48,263 bases of DNA. It comes from a virus. Its lineage: Duplodnaviria; Heunggongvirae; Uroviricota; Caudoviricetes. A model generated the notes under the pieces. That model made no database searches. It was not told the DNA's origin and saw only the letters and a program-made list of their open reading frames with translations. The stretch is taken from positions 1 through 48,263 of IMG/VR virus record IMGVR_UViG_2534681708_000006; one strand, written 5' to 3'. The position numbers and the translations under genes are program-made. Shown in pieces: positions 1,553 through 42,851 of the stretch (position 1 is the first letter of the stretch; every line of letters begins with the position of its first letter).

Positions 1553-1741
1553 TCACGAGGACTGAAGTTTCTCGCAATTAAAATTTATCAGTTTTACTTT
1601 CTGCTCTCTGGAAACGCCTGCTTCTTTTTTACCTGAGAGCATTTTTTCGCATTCTGATTTGGTTAATTTTGTTTTTGAGTACCTTGTCCAGTTAGTAGGA
1701 GTGCCACCTTCCTTTTCAATAGTGGCAGTAATTTTATACAT
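1553..1741 (-). CDS. Small hypothetical protein (YdaC-like position)
   Basis: ORF-track frame 1553..1810; internal ATG (MYKITAT...) is preceded by GGAGGTG and overlaps the lar stop by 8 nt, so chosen as start. Confidence 0.4.
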   Translation of the reverse strand: MYKITATIEKEGGTPTNWTRYSKTKLTKSECEKMLSGKKEAGVSREQKVKLINFNCEKLQSS

Positions 1742-3055: not shown

Positions 3056-6000
3056 TCAGATGCTCAGTGCTTCAAGACGACGAAGATCAAAGTCGTTTAA
3101 TTCGGCGGTATAACTTTCGGTAATCGGTGCTGGCCAGTTGTTTGTCTCCAGAGCTTCATTTATCTGTCGTAGCGTCCGGCGATATTCCTGTCGACCAAGT
3201 TCCAGGAGTTCCTGCGAGGCTTCCACGACGGCCACCCAGTGATAGCCAGCATCTTTGTTGACGAAGATCCAGAAAAATTTGTCCAGGTTTGCCACATCGC
3301 AATACATTGCTGCGCTGAGGTGATAATCACGCTCAATAATTTCACGGTGCAGGCGATCTTTCAGTCGTTCCTGTCGCACATAACCGAGGCTGACTGACTT
3401 CACGTCGGCGCAAATGCTTTCGTATGGCAGCCGGATTTCGATATCAGGACGGACCCTGATTTCCAGCCCGGTTTCTTCATCAAAACCGAAATAGCTGATT
3501 TCAGATTTGCGATCCGGGTGGTTGAGTAGCCTTGCTGCATCGGTATTGTTTTGCAGTGCAGCGTGAATATTTTTTGCCTGTTCATACATATCCGGACTGA
3601 TAAACGTTTTCCCGGCGTTTTCTTCTTGCTGGCGTTTTTGCCAGTCTTCCAGTGTCACCAGTTCCGGGCGAATTTTCCGTGCGATTTCGGTTAATTGCTC
3701 TTTTGTGCCACTGATGTTGTAAGGCAAAGATTTAGCACGTTCTTTTTTTGCCAGTTCTGGATCTACAGTTTCAATTTGCTCCAGAAGTTGCTCCCGTGAT
3801 CCACTGGTTTTCAACAGAGGAGGGAGGTTTGCGTTGTATTCTTTAATACAGGCTTTCATTGCTGATGCTGTGTGTTTTTCCCCCTCAGGAATACGCCGGA
3901 ATTCCTCCGGAAGCGAACCGTAAAGGATGCCCGTTTCTTCGGCCCCGGCACTTACCGACAGTGGCTGTATAAGAGTGCTGTTGTAGCTTTCGATCCACTC
4001 TTTCATCTGTTCTGGTGTCATCGGTGCTGGCAGACTGGCATTGTGTTTTTTAATGATGGCGATCAGTTCGTTAGAAGTAGTAACCACATATTCAGGAACC
4101 GGTACCGGAATGGCATACTCATCAGCGAATTTATCCGTTTCCAGAACATAGCTGTGAATAATCCGTCCACGCAGCAATGCATCACTTTCCTCGCCCGGAA
4201 TAGTTCCGGCAATGTGCCGTCCGTGGTAATACATCAGGCTGATGCGGGCATCCTTCAGCATTGTGCTGCTTATGCCGTTGGCGGAGTGATAAACCTCGTT
4301 CGGGAGGTTTTCATAGCGGCCAGGCTCGAAATATGACGGCCACATGATTTCAGTTGCTACATGAGCTGACGCTTCACCAGTTTCATCACTGCAATCGTGA
4401 TGCGGATGGTTGCCAGCGTTCTCCTTGTGCGGATGTTCAGCGCCTTCCATTTCCTCCGGATCATTTTCCTTAGCTTCAACCTGATTCTCTTCATCGAATG
4501 TTTCCTGGTATGTTGCGTCGCCCATTACCGCACCACAGTCAGGGCAGTTATCCCCGCCAGTCTGACCGCAGGCATTGCAGACTATTTCCGGTTTCTGTTG
4601 CACTACTGGCTCAGGTTGTTTCACATCCGGGCTGGTTTTTACAGTTTCTGGCGTGTTTTGTTCCGTTTCTGGCTGGTTCTGGTACACAGAGTCGCGAGTC
4701 TGGATCCCCTTTACCCATTTCGGATCGTTCGGGTCGCTAATCCCTTCAACGAACTCACCACGCGAGGCAGCCAGCAATTTGTCGGCATCGACAGGATTTT
4801 TTGATGGAATGTTTTTCCGGGCTTCATGGAGTTCTGCCCGCAGTTCCTGATATTTCGCATCAGCAGAATTTACCTGTGACTGAGCATCCAGCGGCTGCGT
4901 GTCCTGATGATGTTCAGTTGCATCCGGTTCCACTGTTTCAGCCGTTGCCTGTTCATCTGCCATTGCGCAAGATGGTTGCAGTTTTTCTTCATCATCCTGT
5001 TTTTCTTCTTCTGTTACACGCTGCGGCATCGGGGCAGAGGAACGACCGCAGGCAATATCCACGATTACCGGATCAGGGTTGGCATGATCAGTTTCAGTCA
5101 GTACTTTGTTCAGATATTCAGTGACGTGTGCGGGGATAACCTCGATCCCAATTGGTGCTTCTTTTACGGACGCAACCACGATGGCGCGGGAATAATCCAG
5201 CCCGCCAGGCATGGTGATGAATTTGTCGCGAAAAACAGAAAAGGGCGGTTTATTTTCAGCGATAATTTCCTCGACACGTTTAGCGTGTGCCGGATGAAGG
5301 TTATAAATGTCCACGTCCATTGAACGAGCCAGTACGCCAGTGGCTACGTCGCGCGCCAGTGACGTCAGATCGTGAACGAAACCTTCGCCGCGATCGGTGA
5401 GGTTCCCGCCGCCAGCATTAGCGCCGGAAGCTGTGCGCGTGATGCGTGAAACACGATTTCCTTTCATCCACTCTTTTGTCAGCAGACTGCGATCGGTGTA
5501 GTCTGCGTCCAGGCATGCTTCGAAAAAAGCAGTCATCAGCCCCAAGCTTGAATTGCCTGGATTAGGGAAAACGCTGTCAGTATCACGCACCAGTTTGTGG
5601 AGATCGCGAATTTCCAGTGGATCGAGCAGGCTGGTTTTGTGGGAAACAGCCAGGGCTGTAACAGCTGGTAGTTCCTCAGCCCGTGCAATGTGTAATGCCT
5701 GGAGTTCGTCGCGTGAAACGTGCGTTACCGGTTTTTCGCTGCCGTGTTGAGCAAGCCAGCGAATGGGAAGCTCCTGGCCAGAAATCGGGAGTAGCATATT
5801 CTCCTCAATCTCCGTCATGTCTTCGCCATTAACATTGGTATTGTCAGTGCTGGCTGGTTTGTCCTGCGCAGAGGGTGAGGGCGCGATAAATACCATTGTG
5901 ATGCCATCTTCCCCGCCTTTTTCGTAACGGTTGCAGAATTCCGTATCAAATACGCCTTCTGGCGGGAGGTCATCAACAACGGGCAAATTGACGCGAACAG

Positions 6001-14965: not shown

Positions 14966-15252
14966 TAACACTTCCTTAATTTTTCCTTAACAATTTAGGG
15001 TGCTAAACTTCTTTGCGCAGTTTACACAAAAAAATAGTGCGTACGCAAAAACTATCTAACATGATGAGCTTTAACCGGGAAATTTGTATATGTTGTGAGC
15101 ATAAAGTTGGCTGAGAAATCTAAAACGGGTCGAATGACTACGGGTGCTTGAGGCTATCTGCCTCGGGCATGCCACCAAAGGCCGATAGAGAAAAGTCCCA
15201 GTTAACATTACGCGTCCTGCAAGACGCTTAACATTAATCTGAGGATATATCT

Positions 15253-15312
15253 ATGACTTGCACCTATAGGTTACCTCTTACGTGCCGAAAGGCAAGGAGA
15301 AGCGGGCTATGA
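15253..15312 (+). CDS. mok-like leader ORF (19 codons) translationally coupled to hok
   Basis: ATG with GAGGA RBS; its TGA stop overlaps the hok ATG (ATGA). Confidence 0.3.
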   Translation: MTCTYRLPLTCRKARRSGL

Positions 15313-15464
15313 AGCAGCAAAAGGCGATGTTACTCGCTCTAATCGTCATCTGTTTAACCGTCATAGTGACGGTACTGGTAACGTGGAAAGACCTCTGCGA
15401 GGTGCGAATCCGAACCGGTCAGACGGAGATCGCTGTCTTCACAGTTTACGAACCTGAGGAGTAA
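15309..15464 (+). CDS. hok: Hok/Gef-family type I toxin (small membrane host-killing peptide)
   Basis: 51-aa translation MKQQKAMLLALIVICLTVIVTVLVTWKDLCEVRIRTGQTEIAVFTVYEPEE, near-identical to my recollection of HokD/HokC; AAGGAG RBS. Confidence 0.85.
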   Translation: MKQQKAMLLALIVICLTVIVTVLVTWKDLCEVRIRTGQTEIAVFTVYEPEE

Positions 15465-16624: not shown

Positions 16625-16914
16625 TGGTGGACTTACGTAAAGCGGCGCGGGGGCAGATGTGCACCGTCAGAATTCCTGGCTACTGCAATCACGATCCGGA
16701 AACGTCTGTGCTGGCGCATTACCGACTGGCGGGAACGTGCGGAACAGCGATAAAGCCACACGATATGCAGGCAGCGATTGCTTGTAGCTCGTGCCATGAT
16801 TTAATCGACGGGCGGGTAAAAAACAGCGATTACACCAAAGAAGAATTACGCCTGATGCATGCAGAAGGTGTTTTTCGCACACAAGAAATCTGGAGAAAGG
16901 AGGGATATTTATGA
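16624..16914 (+). CDS. YbcO-like DUF1364 protein (Cys/His-rich, putative nuclease)
   Basis: 96 aa; CTVRIPGYC...CSSCHDLIDGR resembles recalled DLP12 YbcO. Confidence 0.55.
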   Translation: MVDLRKAARGQMCTVRIPGYCNHDPETSVLAHYRLAGTCGTAIKPHDMQAAIACSSCHDLIDGRVKNSDYTKEELRLMHAEGVFRTQEIWRKEGYL

Positions 16915-17453
16915 TTTACCCAACGCATACAGGAAAAAGCGGAGAACACCTTCGTCTCAACACGCTGGAAAGTGTCTGGATTCAGGGAAAACTACGTATG
17001 TGGGGGCGCTGGTCGTATATTGGCGGCGGTAGATCAGGGAATATGTTCAATCAGTTGCTGGCGTCAAAAAAGTTGACGAAAACAGCCATCAATGAAGCCC
17101 TGTTTAGAATGAAAAAAGCGGGAATAGAGAAACCTGAACTGGAATCATTTTTGCGAGAAATTATCAATGGCAAGCAAAAGAGCTGGCTGGTGCATTGTAC
17201 TGATGCCGAGGCGCTATGCATTGATCGGGTGATTAGTGAAGTGCTGGCAGATCATCCGGGGTTGATTTGTATCCTCCAGCAGCGGTATGAAGGACGGGGG
17301 ATGACTAAGCGCAAAATGGCTGAATTGCTGAATGATGCACACCCAGAGTGGTGTTTTAGCACATGTGAAAAGCGAATTGCTAATTGGTTGGCTGTTGCTG
17401 AGTATGCGCTATACATTCCCATGCGAGAATCACTTGCTCAAAAAATAGCTTGA
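16911..17453 (+). CDS. Late-gene antitermination protein Q (Q-family) at canonical position
   Basis: 180 aa; AGGAGG RBS; WGRW motif and C-terminal ...CFSTCEKRIANWLAVAE pattern parallel the other Q-like ORF; immediately upstream of a tR-prime-like terminator and the toxin/lysis genes. Confidence 0.55.
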   Translation: MIYPTHTGKSGEHLRLNTLESVWIQGKLRMWGRWSYIGGGRSGNMFNQLLASKKLTKTAINEALFRMKKAGIEKPELESFLREIINGKQKSWLVHCTDAEALCIDRVISEVLADHPGLICILQQRYEGRGMTKRKMAELLNDAHPEWCFSTCEKRIANWLAVAEYALYIPMRESLAQKIA

Positions 17454-34605: not shown

Positions 34606-34670
34606 ATGTAAAAACGGCAGCTCAGTTTCGTGAGCTGCTCAAATTCAAAAATCCCGCAGGAGTATTGTGA
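34377..34670 (+). CDS. -1 frame extension ORF (candidate frameshift fusion product with the chaperone)
   Basis: -1 frame opens at 34362 just before the T8 run and ends at the tape-measure start; no RBS of its own. Confidence 0.35.
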   Translation: MRLVDKFTGAGEGDYGCGQWNMEHSMLVIESYGMDRFIADIEISRQFWRDGEHVISDILDYSAGAGFRDICADSGLNVKTAAQFRELLKFKNPAGVL

Positions 34671-36709
34671 TGGCTGGTAACCAGATGCCAGTTCTGACGC
34701 TGGATGTTAATGAAGAACACCTCAAGCGGCTTGAGGCGATATTTGAAAAGTATCGCAATGGTCTGATGATTGGCCCTGCCGGAACGCCAATGAAAATTCC
34801 GGGGCAGAGTGGGCGCGGCGTGGGCGCTGGTTTGCCCGTGGCGGCAAATTCTGGTCGGACAGGACCGGATGTATCCGGGAGAGTGAGGGACGAAAAAGGG
34901 CGCTTTGTTGGCAGCGGAAAAACACCTGATTCGCTGGTGAGCAACTATAAAGGTCGCGGCGAAACGATGTTTGATAAGTATCTCAGTAGTCTGGGTAAAA
35001 ACGCTCAGGGGACGCTGAAAACTTACAAGCAGATCAATTCTACGCTACAGACGACCACTTCGAGATTAAACAACCTGTTTAAAACCACCGTATCGTGGGG
35101 GACAAAACTTGCAGTTATGGGCGTTGCCGGGCCGTTTGGCTTTGGCATGATGGCTCGTAATGTTGTAGAGAAACAGAAAAATGCTGATGAATTGCAGGCA
35201 ACGCCAGGAGAGTTAAAGGCGGCAGAAAGCACTTATTCGCCTTATTTTTCCGGTGTTGGTAATTTGCTCAATACACTGGCAGCCGCGCAGAATGACACTC
35301 AGCATCCTGCCTACAACGGGCTAATTGGGTTAGGGATAAATCCTAAAAAAGGGGCAGCAGAAAATCTCCCTGTGTTGTTAGAAAGAGTTGCTGCTCTTGC
35401 AAAGGAGTATGAGGGAACAGGATTAACTCAAGGGATGTTAAACGGGAGGGGGCTGGGTTGGGTTAACTTTGGCTTTGCTAACCAGTTAGTCAAATATCAG
35501 GACAAAATACCTGAACTCAACAAAGAGTTTTTATTGCGGGCTTCTCAGAATGACTCGTTGCTCACATCTGGACATACAAGTCAGTATCAGAATCTTACCA
35601 GTAACTTAGAAAATAACTGGGACCGGCTTACCAGCGGATTTCAGGGAGCGCTGGCCGGGAATGCAGACGCTTTAATCAGAATTTCTGATGGTACTACGAA
35701 TGCTGCCCTGAATTTCATGAATGGTGAGAACTTTAAAAGGATTCTGACAGATGTAGAAACGGGGCTGGATAAACTTGGTAAGTACGTTAATGGCCCGGAT
35801 TTTAATAACGACCTGAACAATTTTGCCGAAAACGTTGCAAAGGTCACCAAAGCTCTTGGCGGATTTGTTGGCTTTGCGGTTGAACATCCCTGGCTTTTTG
35901 GGGCCGCAGTGCTTGCCGGGCCATCAAGAGTTGGTGCTGTGGCAGCTACAACAACCGGAGTTGCCGCCCGTGTTGTAGGCGGAAGCCTTCTAGGGGCTAC
36001 AGCTGGAACAGTAGCAGGATTGGCTATTCCTACGAATAACACACCTACCACCAGTGAGGAAATGAAAGGGCTGGAAGGCCGTTTTAATTTTGAATATTTT
36101 AATGAAGTGCAGGAGTGGCAAAAAAACAATCCTGGCAAGGTCTGGCCTGGAGGATTGCAGAAATATTCGAACAATGTAAACAGATCAACATATTTATCCA
36201 GAGGGATCAGGAATAACAATCCCGGAAACCTTAATTTCGCAGGACAAAAAGGGGCTACTCTGGAATCAGGGCCAAATGCCCGTTTTGCCAGCTTCCCGAC
36301 GATGCTGGAAGGTATCGCCGCCTTAGATCGGCAGGTCATGCTATACCTGAAACGAGGCAAAAATACGATTGATCAGATTATTGATATTTATGCCCCTTCA
36401 TCTGATGGAAATAACACATCGTCCTATAAAAGCTATCTCTCTCAGTACACTGGATTAGGTGTTAAGGAGAAAATCGATGGTTCTAATTTTGAGCTAATGA
36501 GAAAGCTAATTCAGGGCATTATTAACCATGAAAATGGGGCCGCCGCTCGTGCTGTAAGTGGCGATGATGTGATGCGGGCGCTGGCAATGAACCGGGGGAA
36601 CGTATATTCACCAAATAATGCTTCTCAGGTAATCAGGCTCGAAGTTCAACAAAAACCAGGTTCAGATATACTGGCACAACTCGCCGGAATGCAACAAATA
36701 CCGGGGTAA
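34670..36709 (+). CDS. Putative tail tape measure protein
   Basis: 679 aa, Gly/Ala-rich hydrophobic central segments; AGGAG RBS; ORF track start GTG 34667. Confidence 0.55.
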   Translation: MAGNQMPVLTLDVNEEHLKRLEAIFEKYRNGLMIGPAGTPMKIPGQSGRGVGAGLPVAANSGRTGPDVSGRVRDEKGRFVGSGKTPDSLVSNYKGRGETMFDKYLSSLGKNAQGTLKTYKQINSTLQTTTSRLNNLFKTTVSWGTKLAVMGVAGPFGFGMMARNVVEKQKNADELQATPGELKAAESTYSPYFSGVGNLLNTLAAAQNDTQHPAYNGLIGLGINPKKGAAENLPVLLERVAALAKEYEGTGLTQGMLNGRGLGWVNFGFANQLVKYQDKIPELNKEFLLRASQNDSLLTSGHTSQYQNLTSNLENNWDRLTSGFQGALAGNADALIRISDGTTNAALNFMNGENFKRILTDVETGLDKLGKYVNGPDFNNDLNNFAENVAKVTKALGGFVGFAVEHPWLFGAAVLAGPSRVGAVAATTTGVAARVVGGSLLGATAGTVAGLAIPTNNTPTTSEEMKGLEGRFNFEYFNEVQEWQKNNPGKVWPGGLQKYSNNVNRSTYLSRGIRNNNPGNLNFAGQKGATLESGPNARFASFPTMLEGIAALDRQVMLYLKRGKNTIDQIIDIYAPSSDGNNTSSYKSYLSQYTGLGVKEKIDGSNFELMRKLIQGIINHENGAAARAVSGDDVMRALAMNRGNVYSPNNASQVIRLEVQQKPGSDILAQLAGMQQIPG

Positions 36710-37644: not shown

Positions 37645-38651
37645 TGCGTTATTACCGACTGGAAATTATTAATCCTAAAACAGGCAAGCCGCCTGTGGAT
37701 AGCAATGGAAAACCCATTGGACCTTTTGATACCAGTGAAACACCAGGATGTGGATTGCATGTCGAATTTGACTTTGAAGTAACTGGTTTGGATGTAGTCT
37801 GTTCGGGTACGATGCTGACGATCTATGGATTACCAATTGACATGCTGAAGCAAAGCGTGAGTTTGCAGGGTTGTCTGGTCCGTATGAAAGCAGGCTTTGT
37901 TCAGGGATTACCACTGGCAAATAAGGATCAACAGGGGGAGGTAATCTATGGTGAAATTTATCTGGCCTATGCCAACTGGATCGGTACGAACCAGACTTTG
38001 AACCTGGTAATAAATCCAAGCATACGCAAAACCGATGACGGTAAACCTTTTTCAATTGAGGGGCAGGGGGAAGCAGGGGAAAGGGTAGGCGATGTTTTAG
38101 TCCGCGCTTTGCAAAAAGCATATCCCAATAAATTGATTGATTGCACAGTCAGCGACAACCTGGTTTTGCCAGAGCCGTGGACGGGAAAATATACGGAGAT
38201 TGGTTCTCTGGCTATGGTCGTAAAAAACGCCTCTATTGCGATGATGCGTAATGAAAGGTATAGCGGAATCGCCATCAGTATTCTTTCCGACAGAATACGA
38301 ATTTACGATAACGCGTCAGCAAAGTGGGGTGAGCCAAAAACAATTCATGCCCATGAACTGGTCGGGCAGCCGACATGGATAGCACCGTTTACCGTCAGTT
38401 TCAAATGTCCTATGAGAGGCGATATCAGATGTGGTGATGTGGTTAAACTGCCGGAGGGGCTATATTCTGGCGCTGCGTCGATTGTGATGGCTAATACAAC
38501 GGCACCCAGCGTTATCGCAAAAAATTCGACCACGTTCACCGGGAAATTTCTTGTGAAATCGGTCAGACACATTGGTTCGTATCTGACAGCTGATGGCGAT
38601 GCCTGGGTGACGGTATTTGAGGCATATGCTGAGAACTGGGCGAGGGTGTAA
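37644..38651 (+). CDS. Putative baseplate hub/tail protein
   Basis: Position. Confidence 0.4.
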   Translation: MRYYRLEIINPKTGKPPVDSNGKPIGPFDTSETPGCGLHVEFDFEVTGLDVVCSGTMLTIYGLPIDMLKQSVSLQGCLVRMKAGFVQGLPLANKDQQGEVIYGEIYLAYANWIGTNQTLNLVINPSIRKTDDGKPFSIEGQGEAGERVGDVLVRALQKAYPNKLIDCTVSDNLVLPEPWTGKYTEIGSLAMVVKNASIAMMRNERYSGIAISILSDRIRIYDNASAKWGEPKTIHAHELVGQPTWIAPFTVSFKCPMRGDIRCGDVVKLPEGLYSGAASIVMANTTAPSVIAKNSTTFTGKFLVKSVRHIGSYLTADGDAWVTVFEAYAENWARV

Positions 38652-39364
38652 TGTCAAACGCTCAAAAATTACCGTTTCTCCGAACGCTGTCGGAGATGAT
38701 GACCAGTTCTGGCAACCAGCAAGCCGAGCTTAAAGGACGCGAATTGCCCTGCCATGTTGTCGATGTCAGTGGGCAGATAGTGACCGTTCAGTTTGATATG
38801 TTGCCAGAGGGGATCAACTTTCCGCAGATAACAATCCCTGTCGCCACATTCCCGTATATTCGTTACCCGATACAGCCGGGCGATCGAGGAGTAACAATTG
38901 CCGCAGATGTATCACTGCGCGGTGTGTCCGGATTGGGAACCGGTATGGCGACGCTCTCTTACTCGATGTCACTCACTCCACTGTTTTTCGTGCCACTGGC
39001 AAACAAGGACTGGTCCGACGAAGATCCGCAAAAAATCGTTTTGTACGGTCCGGATGGCGCGATCCTCAAAACAGAGGACGGCAGTAGCTCGGTAACGGTG
39101 GCACCGGAAGAAATCAGGCTAAATTCGAAAGCTGTTTACCTCGAGGCCGAAGATATTTTCCTGAACGGGAAAATTCACCTCAACGGTCCAATCGTCCAGG
39201 ACAAAGCCCAGATGAAGGATACAACAGCTTCGCTGATTGGCCCTCTCAAGGTCGAGAAGGATGCAGTTATCAACGGCGTGAGCGCCAGCGGCCACAGCCA
39301 TGATGTGACCGGCGTTCAAAGCGGCAACAGCACGATCACGTCGAAGAAACCAAATCCGGGTTAA
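38651..39364 (+). CDS. Putative baseplate spike protein (gpV-like)
   Basis: 237 aa; position before W/J/I-like genes. Confidence 0.4.
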   Translation: MSNAQKLPFLRTLSEMMTSSGNQQAELKGRELPCHVVDVSGQIVTVQFDMLPEGINFPQITIPVATFPYIRYPIQPGDRGVTIAADVSLRGVSGLGTGMATLSYSMSLTPLFFVPLANKDWSDEDPQKIVLYGPDGAILKTEDGSSSVTVAPEEIRLNSKAVYLEAEDIFLNGKIHLNGPIVQDKAQMKDTTASLIGPLKVEKDAVINGVSASGHSHDVTGVQSGNSTITSKKPNPG

Positions 39365-39403: not shown

Positions 39404-39440
39404 AAGCCCCGAACTGTTGCAGCAGTCGGGGCTTTTTGTT
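39404..39440 (+). terminator. Intrinsic terminator (12-bp stem with one bulge + TTTTTGTTT)
   Basis: Read directly after the spike gene. Confidence 0.6.
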
Positions 39441-39469
39441 TCTGACCTTGAATAAGGCAAGGAGAAGTC

Positions 39470-39607
39470 GTGTTTGATTTTAGCAAACTGATTCGGGAGA
39501 TTCGAGTTATGGCTGAAAAATTATCCACCTGGAAGTTTTTGCTTATTTGGTTGGTCTTTCTGATTCTGGCGTCTGGTTATTTTGTTGGCCAGATCCGATG
39601 GTGGTGA
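39470..39607 (+). CDS. Small hydrophobic peptide (45 aa, single predicted TM)
   Basis: GTG with GGAG RBS; hand-translated; below the ORF-track cutoff. Confidence 0.25.
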   Translation: MFDFSKLIREIRVMAEKLSTWKFLLIWLVFLILASGYFVGQIRWW

Positions 39608-39614
39608 GGGCACG

Positions 39615-39962
39615 ATGAGAACATGGGGCCGCGTCACTGACGCGAACGGCAACAAAAAATGGGTTGCAGTAGAATCTGACACCAGCGGTGATTTCTCCTA
39701 CGGCTGGCTGACGACGCTCATTCAGACGTTAAAGCTGGGGTTGGGGGAGTCGCCGTTTTACGCGAATTACGGCATTCCTGCGCAGCAGTGCATCGTGCAG
39801 CAGATTTACCCGGACTACTATGTGAACATGGTTCAGCAACAGTTTGCCGGGTATTTTGCATCGCTGGCAATTTCAAAGGTAGATGGGGCAGAGAACCCCA
39901 CCTATAACATCGATGTTGTGTTTTTTAACGGAACCAGTTACCGGACGCAGGTTCCGGTTTGA
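39615..39962 (+). CDS. Hypothetical protein (gpW-like baseplate position)
   Basis: 115 aa from ATG inside ORF 39582..39962. Confidence 0.4.
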   Translation: MRTWGRVTDANGNKKWVAVESDTSGDFSYGWLTTLIQTLKLGLGESPFYANYGIPAQQCIVQQIYPDYYVNMVQQQFAGYFASLAISKVDGAENPTYNIDVVFFNGTSYRTQVPV

Positions 39963-40498
39963 GGCAAGTTTTCGGGTATCAATTGGGCCAGTGGCGTATT
40001 AAGAAGTTCATCGCGTGGCATGACAATCCATCCACTTTTGCGTAGTAAGTGAATTGCCCATTCTGTGGTTATAACTGAGCCTGATTTGTGGTGCTCAATG
40101 TGGGTAACCGATCCGTTTCTGACGCGCATGATGATGTCAACATTCAGAGGGGGTTGTGTGCTGGTAGTTTCTTCGCGTAGTTTCTTCTCGCACTCGATGA
40201 AGTATCGGCGGATCTGGCGGCCTTTTTCGTTGCGTTCGACCATAGCCAGCTCTTTGGCGGTGTCCAGGGTGAGATGGTAGTCTTTGGCTGGTCTGCCTCT
40301 ACCGATTTTTTCCCGATTTTGGGAAATAATCAAAAAGTCCTGATTTTCTACGAATTCATACTCGCTGATTCGTTCGGTAATCCAAGTGGCAAAGCGTTTA
40401 CCTACTTCGAGAAAGGCATGCAGATCGCGAGCGTTGCATAGAAGGATGGTTTCGTTCGAAATGGTTCCGTTGAACACGGTGATGAGTTGGGTGGTCAT
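39938..40498 (-). CDS. Antirepressor (AntA-type N-terminal domain)
   Basis: 186 aa from MTTQLITVFNGTISNETILLCNARDLHAFLEVGKRFATWITERI; AAGAGG RBS; opposite strand within tail module. Confidence 0.6.
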   Translation of the reverse strand: MTTQLITVFNGTISNETILLCNARDLHAFLEVGKRFATWITERISEYEFVENQDFLIISQNREKIGRGRPAKDYHLTLDTAKELAMVERNEKGRQIRRYFIECEKKLREETTSTQPPLNVDIIMRVRNGSVTHIEHHKSGSVITTEWAIHLLRKSGWIVMPRDELLNTPLAQLIPENLPQTGTCVR

Positions 40499-40835
40499 AG
40501 TAACCTCTTTTGGCTTTTTTCGAATTGCCACTAACGTAGTGGCGCCGGGAGGTTCGAAACGGCCCAAAAGATACCGCGGACTTATTCCCCTTTCGGGTGT
40601 TGTATTCGTCGCCCTCCCGACATTGATCGGGGTTGTGATCGCACATATTGCCATCACAAAAAAAAGGCATAAAAAAACCAACACATTGTAGGGTGCTGGG
40701 TAATCAGCTTTTGGGGGAGGTTTCGACGCCTCATGCGTCCAATCATACTCAACTGGGCGCGGTTGTAAAGTATGAACTTGAACAGACATTAAGAATGGGT
40801 AAAATTTGTTCTCCTGTTTTATAAGGAGATTAAGG

Positions 40836-41582
40836 ATGTCTAAGTTAAAATTATTTGTAGTGTTTACCTTTTTATTACAAATAGGAACTGCGAATGCAGT
40901 ATCTTTTGATTGCTCGAAAGCTAAATCATATTCTGAAAAGTTAATTTGCAACAACAGTGAATTATCTGAACTTGATGATAAATTAAATTCTTTATATCAA
41001 AAAGTAAAGTTAGAGAGCACTGATAAGAAAGCTTTTAGAAAAATTGTTTCAGACTTGTGGAATGAAAGAGAGAAGTGCAAAACAGAATCATGTGTTCGAC
41101 AATGGTATTCTAATGCATTCAGGGAATATTCATCTTTAAATGAAATTAATGAGAACATAATCAATGAATCAGAGAATTACGCTGAATGGTATATTGATGG
41201 TGCGCTGATAATATTACCTCCATTGGAAGGTGTTAGTAAAAATAGATTCCTGATGTATGGCGATGATGGAACAATAGCTATTTTTATTGCTTCAAAATCT
41301 AAAGGTAATGGATTTTGCGATAATTCAGTGCAAATTGATGGCCCATTAGAATATCCACCAATTTTGATTAATGGTGAATATTATAAAACTTATAAATCAT
41401 GCTTGTATGGAAATGGTTTTATAGTGCCAAAAACTGAAATTGGTAAAGCAGTTCTGAAAGAGTTGGTTATGAAAATGAAGCCTATAAAAATTTCTTTTGG
41501 AGACGGCGATGAATTTAACTATCCTCCATCAAATGTAAAAAGAATGCTTGAGAGGGTGGAAAAAATGAAACAGGCAAAATAA
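40836..41582 (+). CDS. Secreted protein with N-terminal LprI/DUF1311-like domain
   Basis: Signal peptide MSKLKLFVVFTFLLQIGTANA; Cys pattern C...C...C with LNSLYQK as in DUF1311; AT-rich; AAGGAG RBS. Confidence 0.55.
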   Translation: MSKLKLFVVFTFLLQIGTANAVSFDCSKAKSYSEKLICNNSELSELDDKLNSLYQKVKLESTDKKAFRKIVSDLWNEREKCKTESCVRQWYSNAFREYSSLNEINENIINESENYAEWYIDGALIILPPLEGVSKNRFLMYGDDGTIAIFIASKSKGNGFCDNSVQIDGPLEYPPILINGEYYKTYKSCLYGNGFIVPKTEIGKAVLKELVMKMKPIKISFGDGDEFNYPPSNVKRMLERVEKMKQAK

Positions 41583-41590
41583 GTTAACTT

Positions 41591-41611
41591 AAAACCGCTT
41601 CGGCGGTTTTT
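41591..41611 (+). terminator. Intrinsic terminator (AAAACCGC-TTCG-GCGGTTTT)
   Basis: Read directly. Confidence 0.6.
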
Positions 41612-41624
41612 ATATAGGGGATAT

Positions 41625-42851
41625 ATGTCAGAAATACCAATTACTATGACCAGTGCGGGTGCGCAGCCTACGCCACCCAATGATTTGCTCGCGAATCTTA
41701 TCACCAGAGTTGCTGAAAAAGTACCTGGATATACAGCCAACCTTCCGGCAGGACTTATTACAGACCTTGCCAGCACGGCAGTAGGGGCGCTGGCATTAAT
41801 AGACCAGGCGCGGGTGGACCTTATTAACTCTGTAAGCCCATACGGCGCGAATATTCCGTTACTGATGCAACTCGGAAACATATATGGAGCACAGAAGGGA
41901 TTAAGTACAAATACGGCGGTATACGTGGTGTTTGAGGCGTTACCGGGGTTTGGTATCCCTAAAGGATTTGTGGTTGGTGACGGTAACTACCAGTATGCAG
42001 TTTCCCGCGATACGGTGGTTCCGGAAAGTGGGCAGACTGAACCAGTCTACTGTGTGGCCACTACGTCAGGCTCATGGGCTGTACCGGAAGGGACCGTGAC
42101 GCAGGTCATTACATCAGTACCAAAAGACCAGCCTGTAAAATGCACGAACCTAACCGCAGGGATGCCAGGTCAGGAGGCGCAAACGTGGGCATCTTACCGC
42201 GCCGAAGTCATGGAGTCCGGCATGTTTGGTGTGCAGGGAACACCGGATTGCTTTAAAGCGATGCTCAAATCAGTAAACGGTGTGCGAGAAAACCTGATTT
42301 CTTTTCGGCAGTCGTCGCTGGGGAAATGGGTTGCGGTTGTTGGTGGCGGTGATCCGTATGATGTGGCTTATGCGATTTACAAATCTGTACCGGATATTTC
42401 GAAACTGACCAACGATGTAAGCAATCCATCCGGTGCGGCAGTGGAAAAACGCACGGTTTCAATAACCGTTTCGCCGGACGTTTATCAGGTGCCGTTCGTT
42501 ATCCCGTCATCACAAAACGTCATGGTGCTAATCACCTGGAACACGGTGTCTGATGATTATGTTGATCCGGCGGGTATTGCTATGGCTGTGCAGCAAAACG
42601 TTGCTGATTACATCAATTCAATTGAAGTCGGACACCCGATAAATCTTCTGCGTATCCAGGATATTTTTACCAGTTCCGTCAGGTTGCTGGTTGATGCGAC
42701 GTTGATCTCAACAATCAGTGTGAGCATTGGTATTAACGGCCATATTGTTCTTCCGGCGAAAGACACAAGCCTGGTTTATGGCGATACCTATTCCTATTTT
42801 TCAACGGTGGCATCACAGGTTCAGGTCAACAAGCATGCAATATCTGACTGA
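41625..42851 (+). CDS. Baseplate J-like protein
   Basis: 408 aa; position and size consistent with P2 gpJ family. Confidence 0.55.
   Translation: MSEIPITMTSAGAQPTPPNDLLANLITRVAEKVPGYTANLPAGLITDLASTAVGALALIDQARVDLINSVSPYGANIPLLMQLGNIYGAQKGLSTNTAVYVVFEALPGFGIPKGFVVGDGNYQYAVSRDTVVPESGQTEPVYCVATTSGSWAVPEGTVTQVITSVPKDQPVKCTNLTAGMPGQEAQTWASYRAEVMESGMFGVQGTPDCFKAMLKSVNGVRENLISFRQSSLGKWVAVVGGGDPYDVAYAIYKSVPDISKLTNDVSNPSGAAVEKRTVSITVSPDVYQVPFVIPSSQNVMVLITWNTVSDDYVDPAGIAMAVQQNVADYINSIEVGHPINLLRIQDIFTSSVRLLVDATLISTISVSIGINGHIVLPAKDTSLVYGDTYSYFSTVASQVQVNKHAISD

Follow-up and report, generated by a model that had tools for sequence, protein, structure and literature searches.

The question raised by this locus is what kind of DNA lies between the V-like (spike) and J-like baseplate genes of a phage tail module, and whether it is one element or several. 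The locus spans positions 39,404 to 41,611 of IMG/VR record IMGVR_UViG_2534681708_000006, analysed over positions 1 to 48,263 (48,263 nucleotides (nt), called the window below). A preliminary description, made from the sequence, had read it as one cassette interrupting the late operon, with a terminator, a small hydrophobic open reading frame (ORF), a minus-strand antirepressor gene, a gene for a secreted protein and an inverted repeat in a divergent control region. Comparison with relatives points to another layout: a core baseplate gene, orf115, lies inside the supposed cassette with a hypervariable interval on each side, and the antirepressor gene, ant, would be controlled by a C4-like RNA encoded in its own leader. 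The whole explanation (a V-orf115-J core, two hotspots, C4-like RNA control of ant, and a secreted-protein gene that is a moron) is given a probability of about 0.65.

Two cargo slots around a core baseplate gene

The genes that delimit the two slots are the following (lengths in amino acids, aa).

38651..39364, plus strand: V-like baseplate spike gene, left flank, not cargo (237-aa ORF; weak match to TIGR01644 phage_P2_V, E-value 6e-4)
39615..39962, plus strand: orf115, predicted core baseplate gene (gp25 / P2 W / TssE-like sheath initiator), 115 aa; overlooked in the preliminary description
41625..42851, plus strand: baseplate J gene, right flank, not cargo (PF04865, E-value 8e-8; phrog_6 baseplate wedge)

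Fifty-eight phage loci encoding a relative of J (individual loci are cited by handles beginning with L) were compared, and each gene was located per locus. The orf115 gene was present in 56 of them, and the two loci without it also lacked V (the V-like gene, named bppV in the annotation of Escherichia phage Rac-SA53, was found in 53). In three distant relatives (L059-L061; J 34-47% identical), the orf115 product was 45-48% identical and the gene stopped 2-13 nt before J; the V-to-J gap measured just 531-884 base pairs (bp), with V, orf115 and J near-contiguous and no cargo. The orf115 family comprises 3702 clusters in the protein collection. By synteny, conservation and family size, orf115 is predicted to be a core baseplate gene, not cargo, and the order V, orf115, J is the ancestral arrangement. 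No match to GPW_gp25 (PF04965) was obtained at E-values up to 10, and a profile search of PDB sequences with the orf115 family found nothing; from its position between V and J together with gp25-like fold matches, the fold alone being insufficient, we conclude that orf115 encodes a W/gp25-type baseplate protein.

The preliminary description had proposed a comparison of related tail modules, and in this comparison the presence of cargo varied: among the 58 loci, the interval from V to orf115 (slot A) took 15 forms and that from orf115 to J (slot B) 13. Since a core gene lies inside the supposed cassette and both intervals beside it are hypervariable, the locus consists of two independent slots, or moron hotspots, opened in the Escherichia coli clade, one on each side of orf115. 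The ant gene, the 45-aa ORF (orf45) and the secreted-protein gene are accessory, as had been suggested, but they do not form a single cassette. The start of orf115 lies 7 nt past the stop codon of orf45. At its other end orf115 converges with ant, their 3' ends overlapping by 25 bp (39938-39962) so that the last 8 ant codons lie opposite the last codons of orf115; this overlap is identical in Rac-SA53 and pPE4, and the cargo boundary therefore falls within the 3' end of the core gene. That an essential baseplate gene stood within apparent cargo implies that tail-module hotspots are to be delimited by comparing relatives, not by eye.

A probable C4-like RNA in the leader of ant

The minus-strand antirepressor gene proposed earlier is well supported by its AntA domain, and it also matches anti-repressor PHROGs and is present in 30 of the 58 related loci. 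The ant module runs from a promoter-like site through sites a1-b1, a hairpin with a U-run, an 86-nt RNA, a further hairpin and sites a2-b2 with the Shine-Dalgarno sequence to ant itself.

40742..40769, minus strand: promoter-like site for the RNA-ant transcript, TTTACA-16 nt-TATGAT (10 of 12 consensus positions; suggestive only)
40671..40726, minus strand: upstream leader with site a1 (UCGAAAC, 40726-40720), site b1 (CCCAAAAG, 40715-40708), a hairpin and a U-run
40671-40699, minus strand: the hairpin of the upstream leader, then a U7 run (a U5-U8 run follows the hairpin between b1 and the RNA in most family members)
40536..40621, minus strand: 86-nt C4-like RNA (Rfam sRNA-Xcc1, RF02221; 72.5 bits against a gathering score of 53, E-value 1e-12 to 2e-13)
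40571-40564, minus strand: b' (UCUUUUGG), in the P3 loop of the RNA, the loop of its second hairpin
40559-40553, minus strand: a' (UUUCGAA), the J3/1 junction segment of the RNA, single-stranded and following the second hairpin
40527..40543, minus strand: RNA hairpin GCCACUA-CGU-UAGUGGC (-10 kcal/mol, z-score -3.2), the inverted repeat of the preliminary description
40504..40524, minus strand: ant translation-initiation region with site a2 (UUCGAAA, 40524-40518) and site b2 (CCAAAAGA, 40513-40506)
39938..40498, minus strand: ant, AntA-family antirepressor gene, 186 aa (PF08346 at residues 22-90, E-value 2.3e-28, 99 bits against a cut-off of 27)

The RF02221 match passes the curated threshold and is full-length (model positions 1-87 of 87). 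The RNA (40621-40536), closed by a stem between 40621-40613 and 40552-40544, lies on the same strand as ant and 38 nt upstream of its ATG (40498). A 338-aa ORF with a TTG start (39938-40954) was rejected as a spurious upstream extension of ant, the family leader alignment placing the start at this ATG. The same RNA was found upstream of Ant in every scanned relative that carries Ant in slot B, and the ant leader with the coding part of the AntA N-terminus shows approximately 79% identity with antirepressor genes of many Shiga toxin (Stx) phages.

When IMG/VR was scanned for the invariant RNA core, 119 phage loci were obtained. In most of them an ORF starts 100-120 nt past the core, and 77 of the 85 distinct downstream proteins carry an antirepressor-type N-terminal domain (P22_AR_N in 25, Bro-N in 20, KilA-N in 14, ORF6N in 10, AntA in 7 and Rha in 1). 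This arrangement bears on the alternative that the RNA is a trans-acting small RNA (sRNA) for host genes, a role suggested for sRNA-Xcc1 in Xanthomonas and for the sXF RNAs in Xylella, with its adjacency to ant incidental. Published descriptions of the family do present it as a trans-acting sRNA controlled by HrpG/HrpX, and host targets have been predicted for it, but the predominance of antirepressor-type proteins at a fixed distance, together with loops that co-vary with the adjacent ribosome-binding site (see below), makes this explanation very improbable. Earlier observations of sRNA-Xcc1 upstream of an ORF6N gene in APSE phages and of symE in Xanthomonas integron cassettes had left its position unexplained, and no statement of a c4-like reading of sRNA-Xcc1 was found in the searched literature, which did not extend to the original 2011 sRNA-Xcc1 paper.

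Two variations of the module were noted. In L050, tandem sRNA-Xcc1 copies (3942-4027 and 4155-4240, minus strand) precede one ant gene; Xylella genomes have been reported with five tandem copies, and with one run of sRNA-Xcc1, isrK and C4. In seven loci (L062, L073, L097, L098, L113, L116 and L133) an apparent start of a Bro-N-type gene follows the RNA core, with no ORF of at least 50 codons at that place, and the first long ORF, approximately 350 nt further on, encodes a tail L protein; such loci probably represent remnants of ant modules that have decayed within tail regions.

The complementarity of a' and b' to sequences outside the RNA was quantified. Sixty-four non-redundant leaders with 52 distinct loop sequences were compared, using the mean number of nt in Watson-Crick pairing at own and at mismatched loci and 10000 permutations. 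For b', pairing was 6.45 nt with its own ribosome-binding region and 4.05 nt with mismatched ones; for a', it was 6.64 nt with its own spacer (site a2) and 4.62 nt with mismatched ones. Within the 150 nt upstream, the values were 6.81 nt (own) and 4.81 nt (mismatched) for b' (site b1), and 6.51 and 4.90 nt for a' (site a1). In none of the four comparisons did any of the 10000 permutations reach the own-locus mean. The upstream results therefore define a second pair of co-varying sites, a1 and b1, approximately 90-130 nt upstream of the RNA. The complementarity of a' and b' to a1/a2 and b1/b2 is thus kept by co-variation across dozens of phages with six antirepressor-type families downstream. 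In the aligned leaders, b2 borders on or overlaps the Shine-Dalgarno sequence and a2 lies slightly upstream; in the window, b2 overlaps the ant Shine-Dalgarno sequence AAGAGG (40509-40504).

The inverted repeat of the preliminary description is real, though it lies at 40527-40543, about 4 nt from the position first given, and is to be read as an RNA hairpin in the ant leader, not as a DNA control element. It opens with a tRNA-like GCCA directly after the closing stem of the RNA. A hairpin of at least 4 bp occurs at that place in 63 of 66 distinct family members (mean z-score -3.15) with differing sequences, most of them starting with RCC, so that it is the structure and not the sequence that is conserved. 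The repeat was also considered as a transcription terminator and rejected, a U-run being absent on both strands.

According to the preferred reading, the RNA would act in the manner of P1/P7 c4 RNA and N15 CA RNA. RNase P may be the enzyme that would free it from the ant transcript, acting at the tRNA-like stem and its RCC tail; for this predicted release there is a single supporting feature, the tRNA-like closing stem with RCC(A/C) after it. The freed RNA would pair with the ant leader, the pairing at b2 occluding the ribosome-binding site, and may in addition promote termination at the upstream hairpin; by analogy with P4 and N15, the hairpin and U-run at 40671-40699 suggest an attenuator through which the RNA would exert control by pairing at a1/b1. 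Ant would then be made just briefly after infection, or when the RNA is outpaced, and would inactivate a CI/RacR-type repressor, while the variable loops would determine immunity specificity.

The same complementarities could be explained by a leader that acts in cis, in which the P3 loop and the junction sequester the ribosome-binding site or pair with a1/b1 and no free RNA is made. Every complementarity found sits within one transcript, and when the 261-nt leader is folded to its minimum free energy, UCUUUUGG is paired in cis with CCAAAAGA. However, the element has a closed stem and an RCC tail like the RNase P-processed c4 RNA, the family has been detected as discrete small RNAs in Xylella and Xanthomonas, and the duplicate sets of targets on both sides of the RNA reproduce the P1/P4/N15 arrangement for a diffusible RNA. 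An exclusively cis-acting leader is considered rather unlikely, the cis and trans modes not being mutually exclusive.

If control by a C4-like RNA is correct, sRNA-Xcc1, which is catalogued as a virulence-linked sRNA of Xanthomonas, gains a testable phage role as a c4-like riboregulator placed before at least six antirepressor-type families. The two-site address code would also let immunity (cross-repression) groups be predicted from sequence, including those of the Stx phages with this leader.

Cargo of the two slots

The remaining features are the cargo of slot A, with the terminator that opens it, and the second cargo gene of slot B.

39404..39440, plus strand: intrinsic terminator opening slot A, a bulged hairpin rich in guanine and cytosine (GC) followed by UUUUUGUUU (U-run); -24.8 kcal/mol, z-score -4.5
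39470..39607, plus strand: orf45, slot A cargo, 45-aa tail-anchored single-pass membrane protein (GTG start, AAGGAG Shine-Dalgarno)
40778..40805, plus strand: promoter-like site for the secreted-protein gene, TTGAAC-16 nt-TAAAAT (9 of 12 consensus positions; suggestive only)
40836..41582, plus strand: secreted protein, slot B cargo, 248 aa (GC content 0.307, against 0.474 for the window and approximately 0.5 for the neighbours)
41591..41611, plus strand: terminator of the secreted-protein moron, ACCGC-UUCG-GCGGU then a U-run; -10.3 kcal/mol, z-score -2.3, weaker than 39404-39440

Both terminators of the preliminary description are present. That of slot A is maintained through compensatory changes in the E. 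coli-clade relatives and is absent from the distant L059-L061. A simple terminator scanner missed both and gave counts equal to those of shuffles, and folding and conservation were used instead; the bulge and loop of the 39404-39440 hairpin presumably fall outside the rules of the scanner. Rfam also gave sub-threshold matches there (rimP leader, sar, isrL and others for the slot A terminator); all lay far below their gathering scores and were dismissed as matches to a hairpin as such.

The hydrophobic 45-aa ORF is likewise a genuine gene: its match to phrog_6632 is full-length (E-value 2e-28), its hydrophobic segment lies at residues 22-41, and only part of the related loci carry it. A unit formed by the distal half of the slot A terminator and orf45 (39415-39607 in the window; 3501-3696 in L181) occurs, at 84% nt identity, in hundreds of E. 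coli genomes. In the lambdoid copy of O111:H- 11128, the endolysin and Rz genes flank orf45, which stops 1 nt short of Rz; it differs from the window copy at 17 of 138 nt, with just four conservative residue changes and nearly all substitutions synonymous, a pattern that indicates purifying selection. The recurrence in lambdoid lysis cassettes and the conservative nature of the changes therefore identify orf45 as a genuine gene of the late operon that is mobile and encodes a small membrane protein.

In the relatives, slot A always begins with the same terminator, followed by one to four genes for tiny tail-anchored single-pass membrane proteins of several families; a Rha-family gene is present besides these in some relatives. 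In slot A of L005, L006, L011, L051 and L052, between two and four different tiny genes (45-71 aa) stand in tandem, each coding for a product with an amphipathic segment at the N-terminus and a transmembrane helix at the C-terminus; L054 carries a chimera of two of the tiny-gene families.

Slot B holds, in combinations that vary with the relative, Ant, small secreted proteins, lipoproteins, multi-pass membrane proteins, a YafO-toxin pair and a 391-aa HSDR_N nuclease-like protein, and at least one envelope-targeted protein is encoded in 11 of its 13 versions. In the L014-type (21 loci) and L020/L050-type versions, Ant and the secreted protein are replaced by the 391-aa HSDR_N (PD-(D/E)xK-like) protein, or by a 190-aa protein with a YafO-like toxin; these HSDR_N and YafO-type proteins are candidate defence or addiction cargo. 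Neither orf45 nor Ant nor the secreted protein matched a PADLOC model, nor did five of the alternative cargo proteins, and no family was found in Pfam, NCBIfam or PADLOC for orf45 or most of the alternative cargo proteins. The two slots thus offer a compact set of uncharacterised envelope and tiny membrane proteins that are candidates for exclusion or defence.

The AT-rich gene at 40836-41582 encodes, as first proposed, a protein with a plausible Sec-type signal peptide (residues 1-21), consisting of a K-rich n-region (MSKLK), a hydrophobic core and an ANA|VS cleavage motif, with no lipobox. The helical N-terminal domain (residues ~22-105) was modelled by AlphaFold2 (AF2) with a predicted local distance difference test (pLDDT) score of 89-98, and the cysteines at 26, 38, 81 and 86 are invariant or nearly so in 68 homologues. 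Its assignment to LprI/DUF1311 in the preliminary description was right in part: the four cysteines and the helical model agree with it and 10 of the 68 homologues pass PF07007 at E-values up to 0.001 (best 8e-18), but the window protein itself stays below the Pfam threshold (16 bits against a gathering score of 22, E-value 0.016, model positions 1-47 of 106). Among cluster representatives this domain has 3476 relatives, nearly all of which share this module alone, fused to unrelated C-termini or tandemly repeated. The C-terminal domain (residues ~112-248), with two cysteines and a pLDDT below 50, has approximately five relatives (clusters), two of which are stand-alone secreted proteins of 157-158 aa. 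Already called unassignable in the preliminary description, it has no family in Pfam, NCBIfam or PADLOC and is an orphan domain, new here. A Foldseek search of the PDB with the full-length model gave nothing significant, and a profile search of PDB sequences with the N-domain family gave nothing. Weak matches to GapR_DNA-bd, DUF6832 and A1S_1983, below cut-offs, were read as coiled-helix noise or the shared N-domain.

The secreted-protein gene was found in 8 of the fetched phage loci and in 12 of 5426 complete E. coli genomes. A related prophage of ETEC4090 carries, in the same slot, a gene for a 356-aa protein annotated as LprI family, and the 84%-identical DNA match between them is limited to the leader and the part coding for the N-domain; over residues 1-101 the representative P0003 (356 aa) shares 64% identity with the window protein, and past that point the two are unrelated. 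A full-length homologue was found in a Mu-like tail module, directly after SLT tape-measure and DNA-circulation genes. Variable presence, deviant composition and an own terminator mark the gene as a moron, its own promoter being just promoter-like. As proposed here, the AT-rich gene would form a moron unit complete with promoter and terminator, and its product would be an exported periplasmic protein of two domains in which the conserved, disulfide-bonded DUF1311-like module would serve as a scaffold and the swappable C-domain would bind a periplasmic target, for example a peptidoglycan hydrolase, this being the weakest step. Our best guess is a factor that acts at the envelope, either to protect it or to exclude other phages; a role in exclusion or host fitness, as in the preliminary description, may thus apply.

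The lysozyme inhibitor suggested there has no support. In Mycobacterium tuberculosis (Mtb) LprI, the MliC domain is enough to give lysozyme resistance, and deletion of the periplasmic LprI-domain protein ScwA of Salmonella left lysozyme susceptibility unchanged (PMC7933661). No match to MliC (PF09864) was found for the secreted protein at E-values up to 10 or for its C-domain at E-values up to 1. The annotation "lysozyme inhibitor LprI family protein" is an over-annotation that has spread to proteins without an MliC domain. LprI-domain proteins have also been suggested, on the basis of gene neighbourhood only, to be immunity proteins against lysozyme-like effectors of type VI secretion systems (T6SS), and one has been proposed as a regulator of MltD. 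A more specific possibility is that slot B is a hotspot for periplasm-targeted exclusion proteins, and that the 248-aa protein is a modular inhibitor directed against superinfecting relatives, whose tail-borne muralytic enzyme (or a different periplasmic step) it would block. The same N-domain with different C-domains in the slot, the homologue beside an SLT tape-measure gene and the immunity proposals for LprI proteins are hints in this direction, and the proposal is regarded as a long shot.

These results also weigh against the preliminary model as a whole, namely one cassette with a lysozyme- or endolysin-inhibiting LprI/DUF1311 protein and an inverted repeat acting as a DNA element between divergent promoters. 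The genes are accessory, divergent promoter-like hexamers exist, and both the weak PF07007 match and the name given by the Prokaryotic Genome Annotation Pipeline (PGAP), "lysozyme inhibitor LprI family protein", agree with it; but a core baseplate gene stands inside the cassette, the part of Mtb LprI that inhibits lysozyme is absent here, ScwA showed no role in lysozyme resistance, and the repeat is conserved as an RNA hairpin of varying sequence at a fixed place in ant leaders. This model is considered improbable: the sighting of accessory DNA in the tail module was correct, the boundaries were wrong and two of the functional labels are doubtful.

A structural or assembly role in the tail for the secreted protein, orf45 or both, which their position between baseplate genes and the homologue in a Mu-like tail module might suggest, is barely credible: both genes are absent from most otherwise near-identical tails, the secreted-protein gene has a GC content of 0.31, its own terminator and a Sec signal peptide, and orf45 is found in lambdoid lysis cassettes too.

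The 4.3-kilobase (kb) region around the locus matches the chromosome of UMNF18, a porcine E. coli, at 99.9% identity, and Rac-SA53 is 95% identical to it, cargo excepted. Roughly 1000 E. coli genomes match this tail. Rac-SA53 is a full-length Rac-type lambdoid prophage at ttcA with recET, kilR, a DicA-like repressor and the Q antiterminator; the window is likewise a full-length Rac-type lambdoid prophage, essentially that of UMNF18. A Q homologue is encoded at 16911-17441, and late transcription presumably crosses the embedded terminators through this antiterminator. The tail module reads tape-measure-like gene (with a lytic transglycosylase domain according to the annotation of relatives), two small genes, hub-like gene, V-like gene, the studied region, J, the I-position gene and tail fibres; the baseplate gene order (hub, V, W-like, J, I) is Mu/P2-like. 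A 680-aa tail protein (34667-36709) has a predicted muralytic domain at its C-terminus.

Two further observations concern the prophage and the comparison set. Rfam matches above gathering scores to RalA, the RalR antitoxin RNA (1557-1735, plus strand; 218.7 bits), and sok (15142-15314, plus strand; 91.5 bits) show that the prophage also holds two type I toxin-antitoxin RNA loci. The tail region of PP818812.1 (L002), deposited as "Actinobacillus phage vB_Apl-pPE4", is 99.2% identical to that of an E. coli Rac-type prophage; its host assignment appears doubtful, and it may represent an induced E. coli prophage or contamination.

Comparison with known systems

Several points weigh against the preferred reading. 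The Rfam C4 model (RF01695) gives no match at 40440-40840 even at E-values up to 10; because of this mismatch the RNA is C4-like in mechanism and not a member of the C4 family, and what links it to c4 is architecture and context rather than a common model. The RNA, its transcription and its processing are predicted from sequence alone, and the identical complementarities may act purely in cis as alternative leader folds. Promoter-like hexamers in the region between ant and the secreted-protein gene are no commoner than in shuffled sequence. The function proposed for the secreted protein is a guess, the C-domain having a pLDDT below 50 (AF2 failed on it because just approximately five homologue clusters are available) and no PADLOC match.

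The LprI systems resemble the window protein in one module. Mtb LprI, ScwA and the LprI-domain orphan immunity proteins of T6SS share with it an exported, cysteine-bearing, helical domain of DUF1311/LprI type. Unlike these, the window protein has no MliC, no lipobox, a sub-threshold match over the first half of the model and an orphan C-domain; ScwA also carries its LprI domain at the C-terminus.

The genes bor and lom of lambda and gp15 of HK97 are classic late-operon morons. Together with cor of N15 (annotated in the N15 record), they are likewise promoter-gene-terminator units of deviant composition between tail genes, often encoding envelope proteins that protect the lysogen. In contrast to them, the window has two adjacent slots that flank a baseplate gene and accept many alternative cargoes, and its cargo belongs to no characterised exclusion family.

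RNA-level control of an antirepressor module among late or structural genes is known from the immI region of P22 (mnt, arc, ant and sar RNA), where the protein repressors Mnt and Arc and a true cis-antisense RNA are used, unlike in the window; the Rfam sar model gave a chance-level match only in the window, at the slot A terminator. In Gifsy-1 (IsrK, orf45 and anrP), a prophage RNA encoded upstream of an antirepressor gene is reported to determine whether the mRNA of that gene can be translated (PMC4825925); IsrK belongs to a different RNA family and activates rather than represses.

The RNA of P4 and N15 reportedly acts through premature termination. As in the window, the small RNA of these systems (CA in N15, CI in P4) lies upstream of an antirepressor operon and follows a leader element with a terminator-like hairpin. 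With the same covariance tool, isrK and then C4 (78.8 bits) were found upstream of the N15 antirepressor operon; the N15 anti-immunity RNA is thus of the C4 family and preceded by an isrK-family element, whereas neither family matches the window. The RNA-based systems of P4, P1, P7 and N15 have been linked by Barquist et al. (PMC3632133).

A close parallel is the immI region of P1/P7 (c4, icd and ant), in which a structured small RNA likewise precedes an antirepressor gene on one transcript. The c4 RNA is processed by RNase P to approximately 77 nt, and its a' and b' loops pair with the ant operon transcript, b' occluding the ribosome-binding site (PMC5320573). The window RNA shares with it the closing stem and two hairpins, the complementarity of a'/b' to a1/b1 and a2/b2, the overlap of b2 with the ribosome-binding site and variable loops that set specificity (for the window, a prediction). 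It differs in matching sRNA-Xcc1 and not C4, in having a' in a junction instead of a hairpin loop, in the absence of an icd-like ORF between RNA and ant, in an Ant of the AntA family and in an RNase P processing that is predicted only. Late-operon morons and RNA-controlled antirepressors are known kinds of element; what is new here is the two-slot architecture around a sheath-initiator gene and the evidence for sRNA-Xcc1 as a c4-type riboregulator widely placed before antirepressor genes.

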